This document shows, one piece after another, positions 1-15,095 of a stretch of 64,000 bases of DNA. How positions within the stretch are numbered: position 1 is the first letter of the stretch; the number at the start of each line of letters is the position of its first letter. This DNA comes from Escherichia coli (GTDB lineage Bacteria; Pseudomonadota; Gammaproteobacteria; Enterobacterales; Enterobacteriaceae). The translations under genes were made by a program, and so were the position numbers. The stretch lies in the NCBI RefSeq assembly GCF_013122565.1, contig NZ_CP053258.1. One strand, given 5' to 3'. A model generated the notes under the pieces. That model ran no database searches, was not told the DNA's origin, and was given only the letters and a program-made list of their open reading frames with translations.

Positions 1-1345
1 CGCAAGCGACGTTTAACCCGTGCGCACGAAAATCCAGGTATTCCCGCGCCTGCTGCGCGTAATTCAACAGTTTATGCGCGGCAGATCGCAGAGCACACAA
101 CGAGGCGTTAGCGTAAGCGGCATGAAGCAACGCCTGAATTGGCTTGGCGAACAGCGAATCTTCCCACAACTGATCGGCAGCATGATGAATATGTTCGAGG
201 TCCGCCAGATCGGCATGACGCCAGCGCCTGCCGAGCGCGGCATGGGCAAAATCTTCCACCCAGCGTTGTTGCTCTGGCGGTGGTAACTTACCGTTGTTGG
301 CTAACTCATGGCGCGCCCGATTCGCCAGGTAGCCCCACATCGACGACACCGGAAATATCTGCTGTGGCGTAATACAGCCTTTCATCAGCGTCCCGGAAAT
401 CAGTGCCCGCACCTGGTCGGCGTCGTCACTGTTACGATCCTGTTGATCGAACTTATTGACCAGCACATACAGCGGCACCGATTGCCCCACCGCCAAAATC
501 GCCTCACGGACCTCTTCATCGGAGATCGATTTCAGTTGCGTATAATCCAGCACCGCCAGTACCGCCGAGGCGCGTGCCAGCTGCTGGTTAAGCATTTTTT
601 GCAGATGCGGTTGCCCGGCTTCATTTGGCCCGGGGGTATCCAGTAACGTCAATTGACCGGGATAACTCTCCAGCCCCGCCAGATGGACAAACTCCACTTC
701 AATCACGGGAATATGCTCAATGGCGGCGTAAGCAGAAAAAGGAAAATCGACGTCCAGCGCCTTCGCCAGTCGCACCAAATCATTCAAACTTTTCAGACAA
801 TGAAAAATAGGCTGGGCACCCAGATAATATTTTTCGAAAGCGACGCCATTTTCGATCCGCTGCATAAGCGCACGCATATCTTTATCTATTTCCAGCACAT
901 CGGTCAGATGCTTAATATCGCAATCACGCAGACGCTGTTGTAATTTTTGAATTAAACAATCGATTGGCGCGACATGTGAAAAATGCAGTACCGGTTCCTT
1001 TTGCCCGGGCGTATGGCGAATAAGCGTCGGCAGCGCAGTCATTGGGCGATTGCGATTAGGCAGAACCTCCGTACCAACAATGGCATTAATGGTGGTTGAT
1101 TTCCCTGCTTTCATGGTACCGACAATTGCCAGCACCATTTCCAGTCGGGAAATTTTACGCAACTCATTATTCAGCATCGCGTGACGCTCGGCGATATTAG
1201 GCTGACTCCAGGGTAAAGCCAGTTGTGGCGCATCGTCTCCGGGTACAGAGAGAGGCATTTTTTCCAGTAACTGCAACTGTTGGCGAGAAAGCTGTAACAG
1301 CCGTTCAGCCTCCTGACTTAACTCATACAGGGTCTGTGTGTACAT
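1..1345 (-). CDS. crfC: Dynamin-like GTPase CrfC/YjdA, N-terminal part; the gene runs off the window start
   Basis: Minus-strand translation from ATG at 1343-1345 (RBS AAGGAAG upstream) gives a P-loop GTMKAGKSTTINAIVG; position next to phnA matches E. coli synteny. Not in the ORF track because it is open at the window edge. Confidence 0.7.
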   Translation of the reverse strand, partial: MYTQTLYELSQEAERLLQLSRQQLQLLEKMPLSVPGDDAPQLALPWSQPNIAERHAMLNNELRKISRLEMVLAIVGTMKAGKSTTINAIVGTEVLPNRNRPMTALPTLIRHTPGQKEPVLHFSHVAPIDCLIQKLQQRLRDCDIKHLTDVLEIDKDMRALMQRIENGVAFEKYYLGAQPIFHCLKSLNDLVRLAKALDVDFPFSAYAAIEHIPVIEVEFVHLAGLESYPGQLTLLDTPGPNEAGQPHLQKMLNQQLARASAVLAVLDYTQLKSISDEEVREAILAVGQSVPLYVLVNKFDQQDRNSDDADQVRALISGTLMKGCITPQQIFPVSSMWGYLANRARHELANNGKLPPPEQQRWVEDFAHAALGRRWRHADLADLEHIHHAADQLWEDSLFAKPIQALLHAAYANASLCALRSAAHKLLNYAQQAREYLDFRAHGLNVAC

Positions 1346-1650
1346 AGAAAATTCTTCCTTAAAGCAAATTTTGTTACTTTTATTTAGCCAGATTGTTTTT
1401 GAGTTCTGTTTTCGGCTTTTATAATTACTGCAAGAAATAATTTTATATTTAGCGTATTGTTTTTTATTAGAATAAATAACGTCTTCCGATACGTTTAAAA
1501 CGTCAGAAAGATAAAAATATCACGTGAATTAAAAAAAGAACAAGTAGAGCATTAACCTTATCTTAAATAATAAATAGAGGCAAAAAGATTATTTTCTTTT
1601 TGCGTTTTCTTTCAAATGAAAACGATCGTCGTCTAAAATCAGCAGTACCC

Positions 1651-1680
1651 CCGACAAACTCAGGGATTTTGTGTATAATT
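1651..1680 (+). promoter_or_regulatory. Candidate sigma70 promoter for phnA with extended -10 (TGTGTATAAT)
   Basis: TGn-TATAAT at 1671-1680 with a weak -35-like CGACAA about 17 bp upstream, in an AT-rich leader about 70 bp before the phnA ATG. Confidence 0.35.
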
Positions 1681-1746
1681 GCGGCCTTTTTCGGCAATCT
1701 GCCGTTTTTTGGCGCTTTTGCCCTGCTGACTTTTGAGGAAATCCAC

Positions 1747-2082
1747 ATGTCATTACCACACTGCCCAAAATGCAACTCCGAATACACCTACGAAGATAAC
1801 GGCATGTACATCTGCCCGGAATGTGCCTACGAATGGAACGACGCAGAACCTGCACAGGAAAGCGACAAGCTGATCGTTAAAGATGCTAACGGCAATCTGC
1901 TGGCTGACGGCGACAGCGTTACCATCATTAAAGATCTGAAGGTGAAGGGTAGCTCTTCGATGCTGAAAATTGGCACCAAAGTGAAAAACATCCGCCTGGT
2001 TGAAGGCGACCATAACATCGATTGCAAAATCGACGGTTTTGGTCCGATGAAACTAAAATCTGAGTTTGTGAAAAAGAACTGA
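1747..2082 (+). CDS. phnA: PhnA, zinc-ribbon protein (111 aa)
   Basis: [30 protein letters not shown] zinc-ribbon N-terminus; ATG checked at 1747. The track ORF 1600-2082 is an upstream extension. Confidence 0.85.
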
Positions 2083-2094
2083 TTGTATTGTGAT

Positions 2095-2285
<191 letters not shown>

Positions 2286-2347
2286 AATCTCAACTGTTCA
2301 AATTTCGAACTACACTTAACTGGCTTCTCTTAACTGAGGTCATCATC

Positions 2348-2782
2348 ATGCCGTTAAGTCCCTACCTCTCTTTTGCCGGTAACTGTTCCGACGCGATTGC
2401 CTATTATCAACGTACGTTGGGCGCGGAACTGCTCTATAAAATCAGCTTCGGCGAAATGCCAAAATCAGCGCAGGACAGCGCCGAGAACTGCCCTTCCGGA
2501 ATGCAATTTCCCGATACCGCCATCGCTCATGCCAACGTGCGCATTGCCGGAAGCGACATCATGATGAGCGATGCTATACCGTCAGGAAAAGCTAGCTACT
2601 CCGGCTTTACGCTGGTGCTCGATTCGCAACAGGTCGAAGAAGGAAAACGCTGGTTTGATAACCTTGCCGCTAACGGAAAAATCGAAATGGCCTGGCAGGA
2701 AACTTTCTGGGCGCATGGCTTCGGCAAAGTCACCGATAAATTTGGCGTACCGTGGATGATTAATGTCGTTAAACAACAATAA
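2348..2782 (+). CDS. phnB: PhnB, glyoxalase/VOC-fold protein
   Basis: 144 aa from ATG at 2348 (MPLSPYLSFAGNCSDAIAYYQ...); the track ORF is an upstream extension. Confidence 0.8.
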   Translation: MPLSPYLSFAGNCSDAIAYYQRTLGAELLYKISFGEMPKSAQDSAENCPSGMQFPDTAIAHANVRIAGSDIMMSDAIPSGKASYSGFTLVLDSQQVEEGKRWFDNLAANGKIEMAWQETFWAHGFGKVTDKFGVPWMINVVKQQ

Positions 2783-2832
2783 TAGCTACCTGCTGCGCCC
2801 ACTGGCGTTAATTCCCAAAAAGGAGAAATACC

Positions 2833-3267
2833 ATGCCTGCTTGTGAGCTTCGACCGGCCACGCAGTACGACACCGACGCGGTTTACGCACTGATTTGTGA
2901 GCTAAAACAGGCGGAGTTTGACCACCACGCGTTTCGCGTGGGCTTTAACGCCAACCTGCGCGACCCAAACATGCGCTACCATCTGGCGCTGCTGGATGGC
3001 GAAGTTGTCGGCATGATCGGCCTGCATTTGCAGTTTCATCTGCATCATGTCAACTGGATCGGCGAAATTCAGGAACTGGTGGTGATGCCGCAGGCACGCG
3101 GTTTGAACGTTGGTAGCAAGTTGCTGGCGTGGGCGGAAGAGGAAGCCCGTCAGGCCGGGGCCGAAATGACCGAGCTTTCTACCAACGTGAAGCGCCACGA
3201 CGCGCACCGTTTTTATCTGCGCGAAGGCTATGAGCAGAGCCATTTCCGTTTCACTAAGGCGCTGTAA
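2833..3267 (+). CDS. phnO: GNAT-family N-acetyltransferase, PhnO-like (144 aa)
   Basis: 144 aa with a GNAT acetyl-CoA binding motif ([19 protein letters not shown]); sequence recalled as PhnO-like. Strong RBS AAAGGAGAA upstream. Confidence 0.55.
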
Positions 3268-3279
3268 GATGAGCCTACC

Positions 3280-3609
3280 TCATCGCCCATACTCATCTTC
3301 CATTCTCCGCTCTTCATCTTCTAGCTGCCGACGCTCCTGATCAAGCTGGCGCTGGCGATCGTCCAGTTGCCTGCGGCGATCTTCAAACTGGCGGCGGCGA
3401 TCGTCATATTGTCTGCGACGATCGTCGCTCACTTCACGCTGCCAGCTGTCGTCGCGCGAATCTTCATAGTCTCGCCCACGGTCAGGGTTATAAGCGTCGT
3501 TAATCGCCTGCTGAATATTGCCAATGGTGTCGTCGATAATATCGGCCTGGGCCGGAACGGTGGACAGCGTGAGCAGGGTGAAAAGAAAGAGCGTGGAGTG
3601 GTGTTTCAT
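3280..3609 (-). CDS. yjdP: Secreted low-complexity protein YjdP-like (109 aa)
   Basis: Signal peptide MKHHSTLFLFTLLTLSTVPAQA followed by charged DDRRRQ/EDRRRQ repeats. Confidence 0.7.
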   Translation of the reverse strand: MKHHSTLFLFTLLTLSTVPAQADIIDDTIGNIQQAINDAYNPDRGRDYEDSRDDSWQREVSDDRRRQYDDRRRQFEDRRRQLDDRQRQLDQERRQLEDEERRMEDEYGR

Positions 3610-3677
3610 AAACTCAGCCTCGCAACAAAGTTAATACAAGGTAGGCAAAGGTACCTGTCGCGAGTAGCGGAGGATTC

Positions 3678-5939
3678 TCAATTCTCTTGCCCCAGAACCT
3701 GCGCCAGCTGCGCGCGGGTAAAAGGTTTGCGCAACAGCGCTACGTCTGGCAGCGCGGGGTTATGGCTGGGGCGTAAATCCTGGCCGCTGATGAGTAGCAG
3801 CGTCAGATGCGGGTAAAGTTCGCGGGCCGCATTGACCACTTCTGCGCCGCTCATGCCGCCTGGGAGCATTAAATCGCTGATAAAAATATCGATTTCCGCT
3901 GATGCCGCCAGCAGGTCCAGCGCCTGTTCGCCGCTGCTCGCTTCCAGCGTCAAATAGCCCAGCAGGTGTAACTGCTCGCAGATGGTCTGGCGCACCGCGG
4001 CTTCATCTTCCAGCACGAGCACCAGTTTATCGCCGCTGACGGCTGTCTGTTCTACCGCCGCTGGCGATAGGTTTTTCGCCGCCGTCAGCGCGCGGGGAAG
4101 CTGTAATCTGACCGTTGTCCCCTGCCCCGGCGCGCTTTCAATTTCTACACGCCCACCGGACTGGCGCACAAAACCATAGACCATCGACAAGCCCAGCCCG
4201 CTGCCACTCCCCGTCTGTTTGGTGGTAAAGAACGGCTCAAAGACCTGGCTTTTCACCGCCTGCGACATACCGCTGCCATGATCGATGACCTCCAGCGCCA
4301 CCATGTCCTGACGCTGCCCACTGCTGCGGGTAACGCGCTGATTCCAGGTACGAATTTTGATAATTCCCGTCAGCCCTTCCATCGCATCGCGGGCGTTCAT
4401 CACCAGATTGATGATGGCATTTTCCAGCTGGCTGACATCAATCCACGCGGGCCATGCCGGAGACTGCGCTTCAATCTCAATCGTCAGCGTCGCCGGTAAG
4501 GAGTGGCGCATTAATTCGCTTAACTCTTCCAGCAGTGTTTTTAGCTCAACGGCTTGCGGATGTAAGGACTGCTTGCGGGAAAACGCCAGTAGTCGCTGGG
4601 TCAGTAGCGCGCCACGTTCGGCAGCTTGCTGCGCCCGCTGTATTCGCGGCGCGTCGGGTGAGTCCGTGTTCACCAGTTCCAGGCTGCCAATAATTACCGC
4701 CAACAGATTATTAAAATCATGGGCCAGCCCACCCGTCAATTGCCCAACCGCTTTCAGTTTCTGGCTGTGTAATAGCGCCTCTTCCAGCCCCTGCCTCTCG
4801 GTTTGGGCAATCTCCATCTGCGTGGTTTTCTCTTTCAACAGCCTTGACGTTCGTTCGAGTGACGCGGTATTGCGGGCAAAAACGTTAAAGGCGCGCGCCA
4901 GTTCACCCAACTCATCGCGCCGCTGTAACGCCGGAAAAGTGACGTCCGCTTCGCCGTGCGCCAGGCGGCTCATAGCGCGGGAAATCGCCGTCAGGTTAGA
5001 GCCGAGATTGCGATAGATATACCAACCTGCAAATGCGGTGATCACCACCGCTAACAGAGCGAAAATCATGATCACCCTCTCGCCGGAGCGCAAATCCTGG
5101 TAACTTTGCGCCACCCGCTGACCGGAGAGCATCGCCACCTGTTCGGCGTAACGGTTGATGTCGCCATTAAGGATCGCCACCAGCGCTTTGATGTGAAACA
5201 TATACCAGCTGATTGCCAGATCGCTTTGCTCCAGAGCGGCAGAAAGCGGCGCGAGTTTACGCAGTTCATCATTGAAATCATTGAGTAGCGTATTAACCAA
5301 TGGCGTATCGCTGTGGGTCGGCAACGCAGACATTACCCCGACCAGTTGATGAATAATCGCCTGCGGCGCGGGGGTGGCAATAGCGGCAACAATCAGTCGG
5401 TTCATCTCGTTAAGCAAAATATCATCTTGCGCATTAGTGACTTTTTGCAGATGCCGCAGATAACTTAAGTTTTGATACAGCGAACTTAACAGCGCGTTGC
5501 GCTCCAGATGTCGCCTTTGCCCGCGCTCCAACATTCCGCCGACGCTGGTTTGCAGTTCGTTGCTACGCGTGATGATGCGCGCCACCAGCCCGGCCTCCTG
5601 CTGCGCTAACGGCGCGTTCGCCAGTTGTGCAAGCGAGCTTTTTAATGCCCGCTGTGTCTCCTGCAATCGCTCGGCTTCGCCTTTATATTCCAGCGCTCCC
5701 ACCACTTGTGACAATCGCACCGCCGCCGTCGCCACATTTGCCGTGTCGCGCGCCAGATTCAGGCTGCCGGTCATATCATCCACCGTTTGCTGCTGTACCA
5801 GCTCCTGCATCTGGCTGGCATGACGAAAGCCCATTACCGCCACGCCGCTGACCATCAGCGTCACCGCTACCACCAGCAAATTCAAAAGCAGCAATCGCCC
5901 GCGCGCGCTGGCAAAAAAGTGACGTCCGGGGTGCGCCAT
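3678..5939 (-). CDS. Hybrid sensor histidine kinase (periplasmic sensor domain, HisKA, HATPase, C-terminal receiver; no Hpt)
   Basis: ATG at 5937-5939 (MAHPGRHFF...); two TM segments flank a roughly 290 aa periplasmic domain; H-box GGLAHDFNNLLAVIIGSLEL; G-boxes; C-terminal REC (LVLVLEDEAAVR...DLMLPGG). Confidence 0.8.
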   Translation of the reverse strand: MAHPGRHFFASARGRLLLLNLLVVAVTLMVSGVAVMGFRHASQMQELVQQQTVDDMTGSLNLARDTANVATAAVRLSQVVGALEYKGEAERLQETQRALKSSLAQLANAPLAQQEAGLVARIITRSNELQTSVGGMLERGQRRHLERNALLSSLYQNLSYLRHLQKVTNAQDDILLNEMNRLIVAAIATPAPQAIIHQLVGVMSALPTHSDTPLVNTLLNDFNDELRKLAPLSAALEQSDLAISWYMFHIKALVAILNGDINRYAEQVAMLSGQRVAQSYQDLRSGERVIMIFALLAVVITAFAGWYIYRNLGSNLTAISRAMSRLAHGEADVTFPALQRRDELGELARAFNVFARNTASLERTSRLLKEKTTQMEIAQTERQGLEEALLHSQKLKAVGQLTGGLAHDFNNLLAVIIGSLELVNTDSPDAPRIQRAQQAAERGALLTQRLLAFSRKQSLHPQAVELKTLLEELSELMRHSLPATLTIEIEAQSPAWPAWIDVSQLENAIINLVMNARDAMEGLTGIIKIRTWNQRVTRSSGQRQDMVALEVIDHGSGMSQAVKSQVFEPFFTTKQTGSGSGLGLSMVYGFVRQSGGRVEIESAPGQGTTVRLQLPRALTAAKNLSPAAVEQTAVSGDKLVLVLEDEAAVRQTICEQLHLLGYLTLEASSGEQALDLLAASAEIDIFISDLMLPGGMSGAEVVNAARELYPHLTLLLISGQDLRPSHNPALPDVALLRKPFTRAQLAQVLGQEN

Positions 5940-6052
5940 ATCACGCTCCGTGAAGAAAAATCGCAATATGACAAATATGAACGGCTTCTGACATTTTGCA
6001 TTTACTTTCCTGTGATGGAGTGCTGATATCGACAACCTCGCAGGAGTCCACC

Positions 6053-7573
6053 ATGAACAGCACGCCGGTTCTGGAGATGCGCAATATTGCCAAAGCTTTT
6101 GGCAAATTTTATGCGCTCAAAGGGGTGGATTTGACGGTCTACCCAGGAGAGATCCACGCCCTGATGGGGGAAAACGGCGCCGGAAAAAGCACGCTGATGA
6201 AGGTGCTGGCGGGGGCGTATACCGCCACCAGCGGCGAGATCCTGATAGACGGCAAGCCCTTTCACATTCGCACGCCGAAAGATGCCTTAAGCGCCGGTAT
6301 TACCCTGATTTATCAGGAGATGCAGCTGGCACCCAATTTGACGGTGGCAGAAAATATTTTTCTCGGCAGCGAGCTTTCCCACGGCGGGCTGGTGCAGCGT
6401 AAAGAGATGCTGGTGCAGGCGCAAAAAGTGATCGACCGCCTCGGCGCGCAGTTTAACGCCAGCGATAAGGTCATGACGCTGACCATTGCCGAGCAACAAC
6501 AGGTCGAAATCGCCCGGGCGCTGCATCGCAACAGCCGCATTCTGGTGATGGACGAACCCACCGCAGCCCTCTCCTCGCGTGAAACTCACCGCCTGTTTGA
6601 ATTAATCATGCGGCTGCGCGATGAAGGGATGGCGATTATCTACATTAGCCACCGCATGGCGGAAGTGTATGAGCTTTCCGATCGCGTCAGCGTGCTGCGC
6701 GACGGGCAATACGTTGGCAGCCTGACCCGCGACAACCTCAACGCCGGGGAGCTGGTGCGGATGATGGTCGGCAGGCCACTGAGCGATCTGTTCAATAAAG
6801 AGCGCGATATCCCGCTCGGTAAAGCCCGCCTGAACGTTCACCACCTGACCGACGGCGGCAAAGTCCAGCCGAGTAGCCTGCTGGTGCGTTCCGGCGAAAT
6901 TGTTGGCCTCGCCGGACTGGTGGGTGCCGGACGTTCCGAACTGGCGCAGTTGATCTTCGGCGTGCGCAAAGCGACAGGCGGAATGATTGAAGTCGATGGC
7001 GAACCGGTGGTGATCCACTCCCCGCGCGAAGCCATCGATCTTGGCATTGGCTTTCTCACCGAAAACCGCAAAGAACAAGGCTTATTCCTTGAAATGGCGG
7101 CAGCCGAAAACATCACCATGGCAACCCTGGAGCGCGACGCCCGCTGGGGAATGCTCAATCGCAAAAAAGCGCAAACCATTTCCGATGACGCCATTAAGTT
7201 GCTCAACATTCGCGTGCCTCATGCCCAGGTGCGCGCGGGCGGGCTTTCCGGCGGCAATCAGCAAAAACTGTTGATCTCCCGCTGGGTGGCGATTGGCCCG
7301 CGCATTTTACTGCTCGATGAACCCACCCGCGGCGTGGACGTTGGCGCAAAAAGCGAGATCTACCGGATCATGAACGAGATGGCACGCAAGGGCGTGGCGA
7401 TCCTGATGATCTCCAGCGAACTGCCGGAGATAGTGGGAATGAGCGATCGCGTCTATGTGATGCGTGAAGGCAGCATTGCCGGTGAGTTAAACGGCAAAAA
7501 CATCACCCAGGAAAACATTATGACCTTAGCGACCGGAGTTAACGACGCCCATTCCCAGGCGGTGACCTCATGA
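6053..7573 (+). CDS. Sugar ABC transporter ATP-binding protein (two fused ABC domains, RbsA/AlsA-like)
   Basis: Walker [10 protein letters not shown], signature LSGGNQQK, second ABC domain; ATG at 6053 with RBS CAGGAG. Confidence 0.85.
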
Positions 7574-8544
7574 CGACCTCTGCAAAAACCTCTGCCAAAA
7601 AAATGCTGATGAGCGATCTGATGCAAACGGTCGGCATCTTGCCCATTTTGATTCTGATCGTGGCGGTATTTGGCTTTATCGCGCCAAACTTTTTTAACGA
7701 AAGCAACCTGCTAAATATTACCCGCCAGGCGTCGATCAACATTGTGCTGGCGGCGGGAATGACCTTCATCATTTTGACTGGCGGGATCGATCTTTCTGTA
7801 GGTTCAATTCTCGGCACCACGGCGGTGGCGGCGATGGTCGTCTCCCTTAGCCCTGAGTTCGCCATGCTGTCGATCCCGGCGGCGCTGATGCTCGGTCTGC
7901 TGCTGGGGCTGTTCAACGGCGCGCTGGTGGCCTTTGCCGGATTGCCGCCGTTTATCGTCACGCTTGGCACCTATACGGCGCTGCGCGGGGCGGCGTATCT
8001 GCTGGCGGACGGCACCACGGTTATCAACTCCAACATTAATTTCGAGTGGATAGGCAATAACTATCTCGGGCCGGTCCCGTGGCTGGTGGTGATTGCGCTG
8101 GCGGTGATCGTGGTGTGCTGGTTTATTCTGCGCCGCACCACGCTTGGTGTTCATATCTACGCCGTCGGCGGCAATATGCAGGCGGCGCGTCTTACCGGCA
8201 TTAAGGTCTGGCTGGTGCTGCTGTTTGTTTATGGCATGAGCGGCCTGCTTTCAGGGCTTGGCGGGATTATGAGCGCCTCGCGGCTGTACAGCGCCAACGG
8301 CAACTTAGGCATGGGTTACGAACTGGACGCCATTGCGGCGGTGATCCTCGGCGGCACCAGTTTTGTCGGCGGCATCGGCACCATCACCGGCACGCTGGTC
8401 GGGGCGCTAATTATCGCCACGCTCAACAATGGCATGACCTTAATGGGCGTCTCTTACTTCTGGCAACTGGTGATCAAAGGGGCGGTGATCATCATTGCGG
8501 TGCTGATCGACAAATACCGTACCCGACACCATCAAAGTGCATAA
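7570..8544 (+). CDS. Sugar ABC transporter permease (RbsC-like)
   Basis: Polytopic membrane protein; ATGA start overlap with the upstream ATPase gene. Confidence 0.8.
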
Positions 8545-8562
8545 ACACATGAGGAATACAGC

Positions 8563-9504
8563 ATGAGATTGAAGCCCTTAGTGACCGCGCTCTGTGCAGG
8601 CGCGCTGCTGGCCGCAGCACCGTTCGCCCAAGCGAAAGAACTGAAATCGATAGGCGTAACGGTGGGCGATCTGGCGAACCCGTTCTTCGTGCAGATCACC
8701 AAAGGCGCGGAGCTGGAAGCACGCAAACTGGCAGGCGATAACGTCAAAGTGACGCTGGTTTCCAGCGGCTACGATCTGGGCCAGCAGGTGTCGCAGATAG
8801 ACAACTTTATCGCCGCTAACGTCGATATGATTATCCTCAACGCTGCCGATTCAAAAGGGATCGGCCCGGCGGTGAAACGGGCGAAAGATGCCGGGATCGT
8901 GGTCGTCGCGGTTGACGTGGCGGCAGAAGGTGCCGATGCCACTATCACTTCCGATAACACCCAGGCAGGCGAAATGGCCTGTAAATACATCACCGATCGC
9001 CTGAAAGGCAAAGGCAATGTGGTGATCATCAACGGCCCGCCGGTGTCCGCCGTGCAAAACCGCGTTGAAGGATGCCAGACTGAATTTAAACGCCATCCTG
9101 ACATCAAGGTACTCTCTGACAACCAGAACGCGAAAGGCAGTCGTGAAGGCGGGCTGGAGGTAATGACCGGACTGCTGGCGGCAAATCCGAAGATCGACGG
9201 TGTATTTGCGATTAACGATCCGACAGCGATCGGTGCCGATCTGGCAGCAAAACAGGCGCAACGTAACGAGTTCTTTATTGTCGGCGTAGACGGAAGCCCG
9301 GACGCCGAAGAGGCGCTAAAACGTGAGAACTCGTTGTTTGTCGCCACTCCAGCACAAGATCCCCAGGTGATGGCAGCAAAAGCGGTTGAGATCGGTTATG
9401 ACATTTTGCAGGGCAAACCCGCGCCGAAAGAGCCGGTGCTGATCCCGGTGACGATGATCGATAAAAACAACGTCGGCAATTACAAAGGCTGGACGGTGAA
9501 ATAA
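8563..9504 (+). CDS. Periplasmic sugar-binding protein (RbsB/LacI-type periplasmic binding fold)
   Basis: Signal peptide MRLKPLVTALCAGALLAAAPFAQA; PBP type I features. Confidence 0.8.
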   Translation: MRLKPLVTALCAGALLAAAPFAQAKELKSIGVTVGDLANPFFVQITKGAELEARKLAGDNVKVTLVSSGYDLGQQVSQIDNFIAANVDMIILNAADSKGIGPAVKRAKDAGIVVVAVDVAAEGADATITSDNTQAGEMACKYITDRLKGKGNVVIINGPPVSAVQNRVEGCQTEFKRHPDIKVLSDNQNAKGSREGGLEVMTGLLAANPKIDGVFAINDPTAIGADLAAKQAQRNEFFIVGVDGSPDAEEALKRENSLFVATPAQDPQVMAAKAVEIGYDILQGKPAPKEPVLIPVTMIDKNNVGNYKGWTVK

Positions 9505-9558
9505 GCCCACACGCCGGGCGGCGCAGCTGCCCGGTCACCGCTAAGGAGAACGCTTTCG

Positions 9559-10242
9559 ATGAAACGCTCCGCTATAAACGACATTCTCGGCCATACACGG
9601 CAATTCTTTTCGCAACATGACGTACATCTGCCGCCCTTTGCCAGTTTCTCGCCTGCTCAATGGCAGCAGCTCGACACCGCCGCGTGGGAGGAGGTTTTTG
9701 ATCTCAAACTCGGCTGGGATGTTACCGCTTTTGGTGGCAACAACTTTGCAGCACAGGGGCTGACGCTGTTTACCCTACGTAACGGCTCAGCAAAAGGAAT
9801 GCCGTATGTGAAATGTTACGCCGAGAAGATCATGCATGTGCGCGATGCGCAGGTCACGCCAATGCATTTTCACTGGCGTAAGCGTGAGGACATTATCAAT
9901 CGCGGCGGCGGTAATTTAATTGTTGAACTGTGGAATACCGATAGTAACGAGCAAACGGCTGATAGTGACGTTACGGTGGTGATAGACGGCTGCCGCCAGA
10001 AACATACTGCAGGCACTCAGTTGCGCCTGTCTCCCGGCGAAAGTATCTGCCTGCCGCCCGGCCTGTATCACAGCTTTTGGGCGGAAACCGGTTTTGGCGA
10101 TGTACTGGTTGGCGAAGTCTCTTCTGTCAATGACGACGACCACGATAACCACTTTTTACAGCCACTGGACCGCTACAACCTGATTGACGAAGACGAACCT
10201 GCACAGTTGGTGTTGTGTAACGAATACCGCCAGTTCCGCTGA
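9559..10242 (+). CDS. Cupin-fold sugar isomerase, D-lyxose/D-mannose isomerase-like (227 aa)
   Basis: 227 aa with His-rich cupin motif (HFHWRKRED); resembles the D-lyxose isomerase described from pathogenic E. coli (recalled, not searched). Confidence 0.55.
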   Translation: MKRSAINDILGHTRQFFSQHDVHLPPFASFSPAQWQQLDTAAWEEVFDLKLGWDVTAFGGNNFAAQGLTLFTLRNGSAKGMPYVKCYAEKIMHVRDAQVTPMHFHWRKREDIINRGGGNLIVELWNTDSNEQTADSDVTVVIDGCRQKHTAGTQLRLSPGESICLPPGLYHSFWAETGFGDVLVGEVSSVNDDDHDNHFLQPLDRYNLIDEDEPAQLVLCNEYRQFR

Positions 10243-10256
10243 ATAAGGAGAACGTT

Positions 10257-11117
10257 ATGTCATTGATTTCTCTCGCTGAAGGGCTGGCTCATGCCCGCGA
10301 ACATCGCTATGCGTTAGGTGCGTTTAATGTACTGGACTCGCACTTTTTACGCGCCTTGTTTGCTGCTGCCAGACAAGAACGTTCGCCCTTTATTATCAAC
10401 ATTGCCGAAGTACATTATAAATATATCTCGCTGGAATCCCTGGTCGAGACAGTGAAATTTGAAGCGGCGCGCCATGCCATTCCGGTGGTATTAAATCTCG
10501 ATCACGGGCTGCATTTTGAGTCGGTGGTGCAAGCGTTGCGGCTGGGATTCAGCTCGGTAATGTTTGATGGCTCCACGCTGGGGTATGAAGAAAATGTCCG
10601 CCAAACGCGGGAAGTGGTGAAAATGTGCCATGCCGTTGGCGTATCGGTAGAAGCTGAACTGGGCGCGGTGGGTGGCGACGAAGGCGGTGCGCTCTATGGT
10701 CATGCCGATGAATCCCTGTTTACCGATCCGCAACTGGCGCGTGATTTTGTCGACCGTACCGGCATTGACGCGCTGGCCGTGGCGATTGGCAATGCACACG
10801 GCAAATATCGCGGCGAACCGAAACTCGATTTCCTACGCCTCGACGCTATCCGCCAGCAGGCTGCTATCCCGCTGGTATTACACGGCGGCTCAGGGATTAG
10901 CGATGCCGATTTCCGCCGCGCCATCGAACGGGGTATCCACAAAATCAATTTCTACACTGGCATGTCGCAAGCGGCGCTGGCTGCCGTTGAGGCCCGAATG
11001 GCGCACCGTCAGCCGATGTATGATGAGTTTGCCGAGTTACTACTAGCAGTGGAAGCCGCCATCAGCGATACGGTTGCACAACAGATGCGTATTTTCGGCA
11101 GTGCGGGGCAGGCATGA
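10257..11117 (+). CDS. Class II ketose-bisphosphate aldolase (FbaA/GatY/KbaY family)
   Basis: 286 aa; conserved NLDHG, HGGSG motifs of class II aldolases. Confidence 0.75.
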   Translation: MSLISLAEGLAHAREHRYALGAFNVLDSHFLRALFAAARQERSPFIINIAEVHYKYISLESLVETVKFEAARHAIPVVLNLDHGLHFESVVQALRLGFSSVMFDGSTLGYEENVRQTREVVKMCHAVGVSVEAELGAVGGDEGGALYGHADESLFTDPQLARDFVDRTGIDALAVAIGNAHGKYRGEPKLDFLRLDAIRQQAAIPLVLHGGSGISDADFRRAIERGIHKINFYTGMSQAALAAVEARMAHRQPMYDEFAELLLAVEAAISDTVAQQMRIFGSAGQA

Positions 11118-12115
11118 TGGAACGTAGAGGGATTATCGCCGCAGGCAATATGTTGGTTGACCACGTCCATCAGATTATCCAGTGGCCAGAGCGCGGCTGG
11201 CTGGCGGAGATTACCCACAGCGAACGCTCCACCGGCGGCGCGCCGCTTAATGTCCTGCTGACACTGGCGAAAATGCGCACCGGGTTGCCGTTACAGGCGG
11301 TTGGGCTAATCGGTCAGGACAGCGACGGCGATTACATCATGGCGATGCTTGAGCAATATCACGTCAATCGTCAGCATGTGCAGCGCACTACCTTTGCCCC
11401 GACGTCGATGTCACAGGTGATGACCGACCCAAGCGGGCAGCGGACGTTTTTCCATTCGCCGGGTGCAAACAGACTTTTGGATCTTCCGGCGTTCGATCAG
11501 CTCGATAACACCATGAAGATTTTCCATCTCGGCTATTTACTGTTGCTCGACAGCCTGGATATGCCGGACGATGTTTACGGCACCCGTAGCGCACGACTGC
11601 TGGCGCAAATGCGTGATACTGGCTTTGAAACCTCACTCGACCTGGTCTCCCGCAAGGGCGATCCGCGTTATCAGCCGCTGGTGCTGCCCGCGTTGCGCCA
11701 TCTGGATTATCTGGTAATTAACGAACTGGAGGCCGGGGAGTTTAGTGGGCTGGAAATTCGGTTACCCAACGGCGAACCGCATATCGCGCATATTGCTGCC
11801 GCCGCGCGTGAACTGTTAGATGCGGGCGTGCGCCAGCGTGTGGTGATCCACTGCCCGGAAGGGGCCTGGGGAGAAACCCCGGAACAGGGCGGCGTGTGGA
11901 TCCCTTCGCAAAAGTTAGAACAACGGGAAATTATCGGCAGCGTCGGTGCGGGCGATGCATTTTGTGCCGGATTTTTATATGGCTGCCATGAGTGCTGGGC
12001 GCTAACTGAGAGCATAAAACTGGCACATGCCTGCGCGCGGGCAAGCCTGTTATGCGCTAATGCCATCGACGGGGCAAAAACGCTGGAAGAGTTGCAAACA
12101 GAAATGTCAGATTAA
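11114..12115 (+). CDS. PfkB-family carbohydrate kinase
   Basis: 333 aa; C-terminal GAGDAFCAGF motif; start overlaps the aldolase stop (ATGA). Confidence 0.7.
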   Translation: MMERRGIIAAGNMLVDHVHQIIQWPERGWLAEITHSERSTGGAPLNVLLTLAKMRTGLPLQAVGLIGQDSDGDYIMAMLEQYHVNRQHVQRTTFAPTSMSQVMTDPSGQRTFFHSPGANRLLDLPAFDQLDNTMKIFHLGYLLLLDSLDMPDDVYGTRSARLLAQMRDTGFETSLDLVSRKGDPRYQPLVLPALRHLDYLVINELEAGEFSGLEIRLPNGEPHIAHIAAAARELLDAGVRQRVVIHCPEGAWGETPEQGGVWIPSQKLEQREIIGSVGAGDAFCAGFLYGCHECWALTESIKLAHACARASLLCANAIDGAKTLEELQTEMSD

Positions 12116-12819
12116 TGCACGTCGGCAGCGAAGACATACCCCAGGCCGCGCAGAGTTTTAATCAACATCGGCTGATGCGGATTGAGTTCGATTTTGCGTC
12201 GTAAGCGCATGATTAAGACGTCGATGGTGCGATCAAACACTTCCACGCTATCGCTATGAGTGAACGCCAGCAGCTGCTCGCGGCTTAATACCCGACGGGC
12301 ATTTTGTGCCAGGGCCAGTAACAAGCCATATTCGCCCTGAGTCAGCTCGACATGTTGTTGTAGCGGACTATGCAGTTGACAGCGAATGGTATCGAGATAC
12401 CAGCCATTGAATGACAGCCCGGCGTTTTTCTCCTCGTTAACCGCCAGCGCGCCAACCCGTCGCAACACCGCTTTCAGTCGTGCGACCACCACCCGCGGGG
12501 TGAACGGTTTGCAGATGTAATCATCCGCGCCCATTTCCAGCCCGACCACCACATCAGACTCACTGCCCATGCCGGTCAACATCACCACCGGCAATGTCGG
12601 ACGCAGTTTCTGGATTTGCTGCAATATCCTCAGGCCGTTGGTATCGGGTAGCATCATATCCAGCACCACCAGCGCAATGTCAGGATCGCCCTCAATACGC
12701 AATATGGCCTCCTGTCCGGTATGGCAGACTGAAACCGTAAAGACATGTTCACTTAACACGTCCTGCAGCAGTGCGCAGATAGCCGTGTCATCATCCACCA
12801 CCAGCACGACGGGTTTCAT
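12112..12819 (-). CDS. OmpR-family response regulator (REC plus winged-helix)
   Basis: MKPVVLVVDDD... receiver domain, C-terminal LRGLGYVF winged helix; convergent 4-bp overlap with the kinase gene. Confidence 0.8.
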   Translation of the reverse strand: MKPVVLVVDDDTAICALLQDVLSEHVFTVSVCHTGQEAILRIEGDPDIALVVLDMMLPDTNGLRILQQIQKLRPTLPVVMLTGMGSESDVVVGLEMGADDYICKPFTPRVVVARLKAVLRRVGALAVNEEKNAGLSFNGWYLDTIRCQLHSPLQQHVELTQGEYGLLLALAQNARRVLSREQLLAFTHSDSVEVFDRTIDVLIMRLRRKIELNPHQPMLIKTLRGLGYVFAADVH

Positions 12820-13109
12820 GGTTACACTCCGCATCATTCATCTGATTAATCATTGTGCGTACTTCTTGTCGAAGTGAAAGCTGAAAGTAATATAAATAAT
12901 AAAAATATAAGTCAGGTCACATTATTGATGATAGTAATAAATATGCCGTACTTTTCCCTCTTCAGCACAAATGCCTAATAAAATGGCGCGTTCCGCTCAC
13001 ACTTCCGCTTATTAAAGTCGCAAATTCCCAATTATGATAACCCCAGCTTTAAATGACGTATTTTGCATGGATTACATATTTACGACATAAATGATAAATG
13101 GAGATTTAT

Positions 13110-15095
13110 ATGAATAACTCTCGGTTATTCCGTTTGAGCAGAATTGTTATTGCGTTAACTGCCGCCAGCGGCATGATGGTAAATACCGCTTACGCGAAAG
13201 AGGAAGCGAAAGCCGCCACTCAATATACCCAACAGGTTAACCAGAATTACGCCAAATCATTACCGTTTAGCGATCGTCAGGATTTTGACGATGCCCAGCG
13301 TGGATTTATCGCCCCGCTGCTGGATGAAGGTATTCTGCGTGATGCGAACGGTAAAGTTTACTACCGCGCGGACGATTACAAATTTGATATTAATGCCGCA
13401 GCGCCGGAAACCGTAAACCCCAGCCTGTGGCGTCAGTCGCAGATCAACGGCATTTCTGGCCTGTTCAAAGTCACCGATAAAATGTATCAGGTGCGCGGCC
13501 AGGATATCTCTAACATTACGTTCATTGAGGGCGAGAAAGGCATTATTGTTATTGACCCGCTGGTGACGCCGCCTGCCGCAAAAGCCGCACTTGACCTTTA
13601 CTTCCAGCATCGTCCGCAAAAACCGATTGTTGCCGTTATCTACACTCACAGCCACACCGACCACTATGGTGGCGTGAAAGGCATTATCTCTGAAGCCGAT
13701 GTTAAATCCGGCAAAGTTCAGGTGATTGCCCCTGCTGGCTTTATGGACGAAGCCATCAGCGAAAACGTGCTGGCGGGTAACATCATGAGCCGCCGTGCGC
13801 TCTACTCTTACGGTCTGTTACTGCCGCACAACGCACAAGGCAACGTGGGTAATGGTCTTGGCGTGACGCTGGCAACGGGTGACCCGAGCATTATTGCACC
13901 GACTAAAACTATCGTCAGAACTGGCGAGAAGATGATTATCGACGGCCTGGAGTTTGACTTCCTGATGACCCCAGGTAGCGAAGCGCCAGCCGAAATGCAC
14001 TTCTATATTCCGGCCCTGAAAGCCCTGTGTACCGCCGAGAACGCCACGCATACCCTGCACAACTTCTACACTCTGCGCGGCGCGAAAACCCGCGACACCA
14101 GCAAGTGGACCGAGTATCTGAACGAAACGCTGGATATGTGGGGTAACGACGCGGAAGTATTGTTTATGCCGCACACCTGGCCGGTCTGGGGCAATAAGCA
14201 TATCAATGATTATATTGGTAAATATCGCGATACTATCAAGTACATTCACGACCAGACCCTGCACCTGGCGAACCAGGGCTACACAATGAATGAAATCGGC
14301 GACATGATTAAGCTGCCGCCTGCGCTTGCCAATAACTGGGCCAGCCGCGGCTATTACGGCTCTGTCAGCCACAACGCCCGCGCGGTGTATAACTTCTATC
14401 TTGGCTATTACGACGGTAACCCGGCTAACCTGCATCCGTATGGTCAGGTGGAGATGGGTAAACGTTACGTGCAGGCGCTGGGCGGTTCTGCCCGCGTCAT
14501 CAACCTGGCGCAAGAAGCGAACAAGCAAGGTGATTACCGCTGGTCGGCAGAACTGCTGAAACAGGTGATTGCCGCCAACCCGGGTGACCAGGTCGCGAAG
14601 AATCTGCAAGCGAATAACTTTGAACAGCTGGGCTATCAGGCCGAGTCCGCCACCTGGCGCGGTTTCTACCTGACCGGCGCGAAAGAGCTGCGCGAAGGGG
14701 TGCATAAGTTCAGCCACGGCACCACCGGTTCCCCGGACACCATTCGCGGAATGTCGGTCGAAATGCTGTTCGACTTTATGTCCGTTCGCCTCGATAGCGC
14801 GAAAGCCGCGGGTAAAAATATCAGCCTGAACTTCAATATGAGCAACGGCGATAACCTCAACCTGACGCTGAACGATAGCGTGCTTAACTACCGTAAAACG
14901 CTGCAATCCCAAGCTGACGCCTCTTTCTACATCAGCCGTGAAGATCTGCACGCCGTGCTGACCGGACAAGCCAAAATGGCGGATCTGGTAAAAGCGAAGA
15001 AAGCCAAAATTATTGGCAATGGCGCGAAACTGGAAGAAATTATTGCTTGTCTGGATAATTTCGATTTGTGGGTGAATATCGTAACCCCAAATTAA
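13110..15095 (+). CDS. yjcS: Alkyl/aryl sulfatase with metallo-beta-lactamase domain (YjcS-like)
   Basis: Signal peptide; [13 protein letters not shown] motif; about 661 aa. Confidence 0.8.

Follow-up and report, generated by a model that had tools for sequence, protein, structure and literature searches.

What does an Escherichia coli chromosome carry between yjdP and yjcS when the rpiB and als genes found there in K-12 are replaced, and was the replacement acquired or inherited? We addressed this question in a 64,000-nt stretch of E. coli contig NZ_CP053258.1 (assembly GCF_013122565.1), hereafter the window, in which positions 3678–12819 hold a sugar-utilisation locus governed by a two-component system. 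In K-12, the yjdP–yjcS interval is occupied by rpiB-alsR-alsBACEK. As judged by blastn, K-12 homology stops at 3593, within the 5′ end of yjdP, and restarts at 12889, this right junction lying 70 nt upstream of the start of the regulator gene lmvR. The first-pass annotation, made from the sequence alone, had proposed a rare-sugar locus in place of rpiB/als between yjdP and yjcS. This was borne out: the list of open reading frames (ORFs) contains eight intact genes in this interval and both flanks were identified.

Relation of the locus to O-island 167

The locus at 3678–12819 very probably corresponds, in its identity and in the core mechanism published, to O-island 167 (OI-167) of E. coli O157:H7, of which it is a divergent allele. 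The segment matches strain EDL933 (z5684–z5692) over its full length, with 96.7% nucleotide identity over 9.1 kb, and at the same chromosomal site. Window and EDL933 have the same gene order, namely kinase (minus strand), ATPase, permease, binding protein, isomerase, aldolase, sugar kinase and regulator (minus strand), and the individual proteins are 97–100% identical to their EDL933 orthologues, as judged by tblastn against the EDL933 locus (L082). Amino-acid identity is ~100% for LmuX and 98% for LmvR, while lmvK shows 95.1% nucleotide identity to the EDL933 gene and is 3 codons shorter. Judged by its sequence, the window allele appears functional. The features of the locus are as follows.

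3678–5939, minus strand: lmvK/rbfS (z5692 orthologue), hybrid sensor histidine kinase, 753 aa
5940–6052, unstranded, 113 nt: divergent control region between lmvK and lmuX, corresponding to the lmuX promoter mapped in EDL933 (PMC10128022)
6053–7573, plus strand: lmuX, ATP-binding cassette (ABC) ATPase of CUT2 type, its two nucleotide-binding domains fused
7570–8544, plus strand: lmuY, ABC permease with RbsC-like and AlsC-like NCBIfam matches below cut-offs
8563–9504, plus strand: lmuZ, periplasmic sugar-binding protein with signal peptide, RbsB-like but below cut-off
9559–10242, plus strand: lmuI (EcSI, z5688 orthologue), predicted cupin D-lyxose/D-mannose isomerase
10257–11117, plus strand: lmuA, class II (metal-dependent) ketose-phosphate aldolase (PF01116, NF005284)
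11114–12115, plus strand: lmuK, PfkB-family sugar kinase (PF00294)
12112–12819, minus strand: lmvR/rbfR (z5684 orthologue), OmpR/PhoB-family response regulator, 235 aa

The raw lmvK ORF extends to 6035; the start at 5939 is the one used in RefSeq annotation of orthologues. The plus-strand run from lmuX to lmuK shows gaps or overlaps of −4 to 54 nt (the lmuX/lmuY overlap being 4 nt), a spacing that matches expectation for one operon, and lmuXYZIAK are indeed co-transcribed in EDL933 (PMC10128022). The sensor kinase gene had been described as convergent with this operon. It is in fact divergent from it, head to head, the two sharing the 113-nt region 5940–6052. The convergent orientation given for the regulator gene was right, lmuK and lmvR overlapping by 4 nt at their 3′ ends (12112–12115). 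No terminator lies between the two genes at this point, and read-through from lmuK, once the operon is induced, would run antisense to lmvR. The overlap is not conserved, since ~25 nt separate both genes in Citrobacter.

The locus is thus already known, and the functional reading made from its sequence was correct but not new. The kinase z5692 and the regulator z5684 were named RbfS/RbfR in a PNAS study of 2022 (PMC9860305); the same pair was named LmvK/LmvR, and the six intervening genes lmuXYZIAK, in an mBio study of 2023 (PMC10128022). Both studies are reviewed in PMC11644481. OI-167 was placed between yjcS and yjdP, where it replaces the als locus (PMC10128022). RbfS/RbfR also activates virulence genes of the locus of enterocyte effacement (LEE), the published second target of the regulator (PMC9860305). 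It had been singled out as unusual that a sensor kinase should govern such a pathway. This mode of control is indeed uncommon, but for this pathway it had been described before.

The closest genome to the window, VE-T9, has its lmvK orthologue annotated as a pseudogene owing to a frameshift (L001, 5733–7992), and a few other carriers annotate the kinase only as 'ATP-binding protein' (also hits H48 and H135). The LmvK/LmvR system may be decaying in some lineages.

Predicted pathway and its substrates

The Pfam families expected for the three enzymes were all recovered (PF07385, 3.6e-92; PF01116, 1.1e-91; PF00294, 1.2e-34). LmuI is ~97% identical to the crystallised EcSI/Z5688 over all 227 residues, with a handful of substitutions, matches PDB 3KMH/3MPB with E = 2.7e-157 and scores above the NCBIfam cut-off (NF051472, 439 bits versus 350; PF07385, Lyx_isomer). 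This curated match and the near-identity to a proven enzyme designate LmuI as a predicted D-lyxose/D-mannose isomerase. EcSI is active on D-lyxose, giving xylulose, and on D-mannose, giving fructose (PMC10128022), the two sugars that the first-pass annotation had put forward as substrates. LmuA also exceeds its NCBIfam cut-off (NF005284, 573 bits versus 406) and is about equally related to the solved FBA-II, KbaY/AgaY and YdjI enzymes (3e-53 for YdjI). LmuK reaches no NCBIfam specificity class, its best score being 71 bits against a cut-off of 300, and its PDB relatives are distant.

For the transporter, the best NCBIfam matches of LmuX were AraG, XylG and RbsA, all below cut-offs, and equivalog scores fell short throughout (AraG 561 versus 689, RbsC 269 versus 398, RbsB 150 versus 337 and AlsB 106 versus 335). 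LmuXYZ is a CUT2-class transporter distinct from the Rbs, Ara, Xyl, Als and Mgl members. A close LmuZ homologue has been solved (PDB 4RWE, E = 3.7e-167), LmuZ shares 95–97% amino-acid identity with its counterparts in Citrobacter, Enterobacter and Kosakonia, and LmuXYZ is ~60% identical to a Herbaspirillum transporter annotated for mannose (PMC10128022).

Taken together, the pathway would run as follows. Membrane-bound LmvK would respond to periplasmic D-mannose or D-lyxose and autophosphorylate on His407, riboflavin being a second published signal (PMC9860305), and the phosphoryl group would pass to Asp54 of LmvR. LmvR~P would bind the direct repeat ATATGA-CAA-ATATGA by the lmuX −35 element, probably as a dimer, and activate the operon. 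LmuXYZ would take up the aldose and LmuI would convert D-lyxose to D-xylulose and D-mannose to D-fructose. Xylulose would then enter the pentose phosphate pathway via the host xylulokinase, while fructose would be phosphorylated by LmuK and the phosphorylated ketose presumably cleaved by LmuA. The order of uptake, isomerisation to a ketose, phosphorylation and aldol cleavage, first read from gene content, is that of the pathway model published for EDL933 (PMC10128022, Fig. 3A). Among these steps, we infer the mode of sugar sensing, the carbon targeted by LmuK and the substrate of LmuA. In EDL933, mannose and lyxose induce the lmu operon through LmvK/LmvR, deletion of lmvK, lmvR, lmuI or lmuZYX impairs growth on D-lyxose, and LmuK shows fructose kinase activity in an assay that measured ADP formation only (PMC10128022).

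Several points weigh against this reading. The function of the window locus is transferred from the EDL933 orthologue on the strength of protein identity (95–100% per protein). The two studies name different signals, riboflavin and mannose (PMC9860305, PMC10128022). EDL933 can do without lmuK and lmuA when growing on lyxose, and its operon adds little on mannose except when lmvR is overexpressed in a manA mutant background (PMC10128022), so that the physiological substrate may be another one.

Lyxose and mannose could accordingly be no more than secondary substrates or induce gratuitously, with another aldose as the natural substrate or a route passing through a ketose 1-phosphate. Besides the mutant phenotypes above, the high Km of LmuI for mannose (19.8 mM; PMC10128022) and the position of LmuK below the cut-off of every characterised kinase family point in this direction. 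In the 1-phosphate variant, LmuK would be a 1-kinase and LmuA would split fructose-1-phosphate or xylulose-1-phosphate into dihydroxyacetone phosphate and an aldehyde, in the manner of E. coli YdjH/YdjI. This pair acts on ketose 1-phosphates, and its members belong to the same two families (PfkB kinase, class II aldolase) and are likewise encoded side by side. LmuA is equally similar to YdjI and to true bisphosphate aldolases; the similarity of YdjH to LmuK is remote (2.2e-7). The published kinase assay, which read ADP alone, is compatible with phosphorylation at this carbon. Against another substrate stand the induction of the operon by both mannose and lyxose, the requirement of lmuI and lmuZYX for lyxose growth, and the resemblance of LmuXYZ to the annotated mannose transporter; moreover, no alternative substrate has so far been proposed. 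We regard another substrate or a 1-phosphate route as rather unlikely and retain the lyxose/mannose pathway.

Control region of the operon

The region 5940–6052 had been proposed to hold the operon promoter, in agreement with EDL933, where the two-component system binds the promoter located there (PMC10128022). The LmvR operator, the direct repeat ATATGA-CAA-ATATGA, is found at 5966–5980 on the plus strand and starts 87 nt upstream of the lmuX ATG. This is the single exact match to ATATGA-N3-ATATGA in the 64-kb window. In EDL933, LmvR binds the direct repeat directly, and its DNase I footprint, from −41 to −62 of the lmuX promoter, contains ATATGA-N3-ATATGA (PMC10128022). The operator is kept as [A/C]TATGA-CAA-[A/T]TATGA in all 58 intergenic regions recovered, from at least 12 genera. 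Its distance to the ATG is 85–92 nt across these 58 loci, with 106 nt in one locus.

A promoter could be placed next to this operator by eye, fitted to the published footprint:

5988–6016, plus strand: candidate lmuX core promoter, with a CTGACA −35-like element at 5988–5993, a TGTGAT −10-like element at 6011–6016 and a 17-nt spacer

This candidate would put the operator at about −58 to −44. A consensus promoter scan missed the lmuX promoter, as expected for an activator-dependent promoter. No second LmvR operator was found before lmvR or lmvK, 5966–5980 being the only match with no or one mismatch. Matches with 3 mismatches at 12888–12910, in the lmvR–yjcS region, were dismissed as A/T-rich background. 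LmvR itself matches the NCBIfam models OmpR, VirG and PhoB, all below cut-offs, and carries Asp54 in a conserved context.

A second conserved feature of the operon lies at the boundary between transporter and enzyme genes:

9513–9535, plus strand: stem-loop 3′ of lmuZ, with a perfect 10-bp G+C-rich stem and no T-run (RNA fold)

A strong hairpin or an element resembling repetitive extragenic palindromes (REP-like) is present at the lmuZ–lmuI spacer in 67 of 67 loci, with unrelated sequences. The hairpin is probably an intra-operon mRNA stabiliser or a partial barrier. That its position is kept despite unrelated sequences suggests selection for differential expression of transporter and enzyme genes.

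Distribution in E. coli

The presence/absence comparison across the E. coli pangenome that had been suggested was carried out on 5,426 complete genomes. The island is full-length in 410 of them (7.6%), always as a single chromosomal copy at the same site. Of these carriers, 387 have an island at least 99% identical to the EDL933 allele, and among carriers sampled at even intervals along the ranking ~70% were at least 99.8% identical to it. The remaining carriers include O145 as well as strains from horse, frog, pigeon, poultry, goat, deer, baboon, wastewater and humans that bear no label of enterohaemorrhagic E. coli (EHEC). At least ~100 carrier genomes are not labelled O157 or O55. Carrier alleles extend down to 96.4% identity, with one at 93.5%.

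The window allele is among the divergent ones. Its best match among complete E. coli genomes is at most 98.5% identical over the island and 98.6% over the flank. Flank identities of 96–98.6% to E. coli genomes led us to reject an origin of the window outside this species. From EDL933 it differs by 2.5–4.9% per segment, compared with 2.2–2.7% for the flanking yjcS and mdtNO genes. More generally, E. coli island alleles differ by up to ~3.5–6.5%. As another difference from EDL933, the window allele belongs to a lineage without most of the phn operon.

At the yjdP/yjcS site, three states were found: complete rpiB-als in 3,367 genomes, an rpiB remnant only in ~1,600 and lmu in 410. Of the 5,426 genomes, 4,988 carry als or the rpiB remnant, a count that, beside the 410 with lmu, is compatible with mutual exclusivity of als and lmu. 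In strain CI5 (L084, 5821–6138), truncated rpiB is the only content between yjcS and yjdP, without als or lmu, and yjcS is frameshifted. The als locus of K-12 occupies the same slot as lmu and likewise encodes a sugar kinase and an enzyme of sugar conversion along with a CUT2 ABC transporter. At the DNA level, however, the two are distant, with one 120-nt match at 75% identity. They also differ in regulator and enzymes, als having an RpiR-type repressor, an epimerase and a 6-phosphate isomerase, whereas lmu has a two-component activator, a cupin isomerase and an aldolase. Within E. coli, als and lmu look like alternatives at one site.

Conservation in other genera

To look beyond E. coli, one genome per bacterial species was scanned by exact peptide patterns based on the isomerase, which gave 79 loci. 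About 60 of the 79 share the same eight genes in the same order and orientation. They come from Citrobacter, Enterobacter, Lelliottia, Leclercia, Kosakonia, Pluralibacter, Phytobacter, Pseudescherichia, Buttiauxella, Cedecea, Serratia, Yersinia and others. At most Enterobacteriaceae loci the left flank is phnMNOP-yjdP, as in E. coli, and the right flank is fdhF-yjcO-gltP, the E. coli order minus yjcS-ytcA-mdtNOP. Both flanks are the same in at least 10 Enterobacteriaceae genera. In Serratia and Yersinia, gene order and operator are the same, but neither flank was found.

In seven loci (L022, L025, L030, L032, L034, L036 and L045, at ~1–6300), alsA-alsC-alsE-alsK adjoins the sensor kinase gene. 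Among their hosts are Enterobacter soli, Huaxiibacter, Kosakonia oryziphila, Phytobacter ursingii and Lelliottia, and one locus is from a metagenome-assembled genome (MAG). In these loci als and lmu thus coexist, as neighbours rather than alternatives. In a Pluralibacter MAG (L037, ~3770–13000), isomerase, aldolase and kinase genes lie between rpiB and yjcS without ABC transporter or two-component system. Apparently, the catabolic genes can occur as a unit of their own.

Mean identity to other genera is 86.1% for island proteins and 85.1% for flank proteins. Island identity declines from Citrobacter to Enterobacter/Kosakonia, then Buttiauxella/Cedecea, then Yersinia/Serratia, which is the order of relatedness of these genera. 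The nearest copies outside Escherichia, in Citrobacter, show ~78–86% nucleotide identity and have diverged to the same extent as the core genes on either side. Within the genus, the island of Escherichia sp. E1V33 is 96.2% identical to the window.

Ancestral locus or acquired island

The locus looks ancestral on account of its synteny in many genera, including the seven loci where it stands beside als. We therefore consider it likely that lmu is an old Enterobacteriaceae locus at its ancestral site, lost by most Escherichia lineages. The literature describes the system as laterally acquired and essentially restricted to EHEC of serotypes O157:H7, O55:H7 and O145:H28 (PMC9860305, PMC10128022, PMC11644481), which would make acquisition of OI-167 a step in the emergence of these pathogens. 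Horizontal acquisition finds its support in the patchy presence among E. coli genomes and in the ~70% of carriers that hold the O157:H7/O55:H7 allele. The first of these is the only usual property of an island observed here, and it is equally expected from differential loss.

The other properties of an island are lacking. No mobility genes, integrase, insertion sequence (IS) elements or border repeats were found at the island borders. Composition is not deviant: island GC content is 56.2%, as compared with 55.8% for yjdP, 54–56% for mdtNOP and 56–61% for the K-12 phn genes, als being lower. Nor is the locus absent from related genera or placed elsewhere in them, flanks and operator being syntenic in at least 10 Enterobacteriaceae genera. 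The neighbour-like distance of the Citrobacter copies, the many carriers from animals and wastewater not labelled O157, O55 or O145, and the divergence of the window allele from EDL933 (3.3%, as much as or more than the flanks) also speak against acquisition, which we judge quite unlikely.

Two observations count against the ancestral origin that we favour. A vertical history requires many independent losses, given presence in only 7.6% of E. coli genomes. In addition, sp. E1V33 was the only other Escherichia species representative to score in the scan, this absence being that seen with exact peptide patterns and one genome per species. Presence and absence alleles have likely been exchanged within E. 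coli by homologous recombination, which is compatible with either origin. Finally, the first-pass annotation had raised the case of an ancestral locus into which als was inserted. The first half agrees with our results, but als is not obviously the insertion: als and lmu both look old, and E. coli lineages appear to have kept one, the other or neither.

Sensor kinase and possible mode of sensing

LmvK comprises a first transmembrane segment (~15–38), a helical periplasmic domain (~40–285), a second transmembrane segment (~288–308) and a HAMP domain (309–357), followed in the cytoplasm by HisKA (399–458, with His407), HATPase (501–616) and receiver (640–748, with Asp689) domains. The phospho-acceptors are kept in conserved motifs: His407 and Asp689 of LmvK correspond to His410 and Asp692 in EDL933, and LmvR retains Asp54. 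No histidine phosphotransfer (HPt) domain was detected in LmvK by Pfam, the receiver ending at residue 748 of 753.

A Pfam search with residues 40–285 gave no match, and a sequence search against solved structures matched the cytoplasmic part only, from residue 341 onwards. Since neither search gave anything for the periplasmic part, the sensor domain was modelled structurally (AlphaFold2, residues 1–345, alignment of 42 orthologues, predicted local distance difference test score 80.7). The best PDB match of the modelled sensor was the TorS sensor domain 3I9Y (Foldseek probability 1.00), a modest match with 14% identity and TM-scores of 0.48 (query) and 0.70 (target). TorS–TorT complexes also matched, followed by PilJ and McpS, which are helical domains binding their ligands directly. 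The match to TorS makes sensing through LmuZ plausible, direct sensing being equally possible.

Several likenesses to TorS/TorT/TorR and VirA can be drawn. According to the model, LmvK would share the helical TorS-like periplasmic fold; like TorS and VirA, it is a hybrid kinase with a C-terminal receiver and an OmpR-family partner; and as in the TorT and ChvE systems, a ribose-binding-protein-like periplasmic protein is encoded alongside. Unlike TorS, LmvK has no HPt domain, and its domain order is VirA-like. NCBIfam scores are far below cut-offs (VirA-like 217 versus 647, TorS 135 versus 677), the VirG and TorR models also scoring. LmvK is thus not a member of the TorS or VirA family, as it falls below both curated thresholds and lacks the TorS HPt domain. 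By analogy, it would at most work like them.

We tentatively envisage, as one possibility, that sugar-loaded LmuZ docks on the TorS-like domain of LmvK, as TorT does on TorS and ChvE on VirA, the receiver being modulatory as in VirA. The docking part is suggested by the structural match to TorS, alone and in complex with TorT, by a weak similarity of LmuZ to TorT (5.7e-11), and by the presence of transporter and two-component genes together in all loci but one. The hairpin after lmuZ in every genus, which suggests selection for high LmuZ expression, points the same way. However, the same fold in the helical bimodular domains of McpS and PilJ binds small ligands directly, the structural match has the modest identity given above, and riboflavin reportedly acts on the purified kinase with no binding protein present (PMC9860305). 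A modulatory receiver is consistent with a receiver unaccompanied by HPt, as in VirA, and with VirA-like and VirG being among the best models for the cytoplasmic part of LmvK and for LmvR. The LmvK/LmvR study postulates an unknown HPt protein (PMC10128022). If the receiver is modulatory, a separate HPt protein would be unnecessary, a route supported by the direct kinase-to-regulator phosphotransfer observed in vitro in the study that also reports riboflavin-stimulated autophosphorylation (PMC9860305).

Flanking regions

The locus is bounded by two core genes and, on the right, by an intergenic region:

3280–3609, minus strand: yjdP, left flanking core gene (NCBIfam NF041443, 148 bits versus a cut-off of 90)
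12820–13097, unstranded: lmvR–yjcS intergenic region
13098–15095, plus strand: yjcS (alkyl sulfatase), right flanking core gene, 95.7–98.6% nucleotide identity to E. coli genomes

Within yjdP, a 21/42-nt tandem repeat at 3341–3426 encodes DDRRRQL protein repeats. YjdP conservation across genera, at 43–83% identity, is far below that of its neighbours. To the left of yjdP, yjdN (2249–2782) is directly followed by phnO (2833–3267). Relative to K-12, ~9.8 kb (phnC to phnN) and phnP are missing from the window, phnO being intact. This phn-deleted arrangement is common to the closest island-bearing E. coli (VE-T9, PT62, C9 and others) and to Escherichia sp. E1V33. The yjdM–yjdN spacer (2093–2279) holds a 100-nt tandem repeat in 1.9 copies, with REP-like palindromic content. 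Its copy number varies between strains, since the K-12 region matches at about six successive 100-nt steps. Further to the right, yjcO and gltP are separated by an IS110-family transposase ORF (23539–24519, 326 aa; NF033542, 253 bits versus a cut-off of 140), for which the related loci fetched gave no counterpart.

Implications for EHEC and the Enterobacteriaceae

The locus is a two-component-controlled lyxose/mannose cluster that EHEC also uses to switch on type III secretion genes. In itself it is settled science, and the comparative picture is of modest importance. What is added to the published work is the spread of the locus across E. coli outside O157, O55 and O145, and its family-wide synteny. 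The literature presents the system as a virulence regulator gained laterally and confined to EHEC, and cautions that it may spread. This view fits poorly with the comparative results, namely the family-wide conservation of locus, operator and flanks, the carriers outside O157/O55, and the neighbour-like divergence and composition. The joint reading, in which OI-167 would be an ancient Enterobacteriaceae regulon at its original site, co-opted by EHEC, sensing via LmuZ and with a modulatory receiver, is doubtful as a whole. If its ancestral part is true, OI-167 would be an old metabolic regulon that most E. coli have lost, and its link to virulence would be a later co-option.

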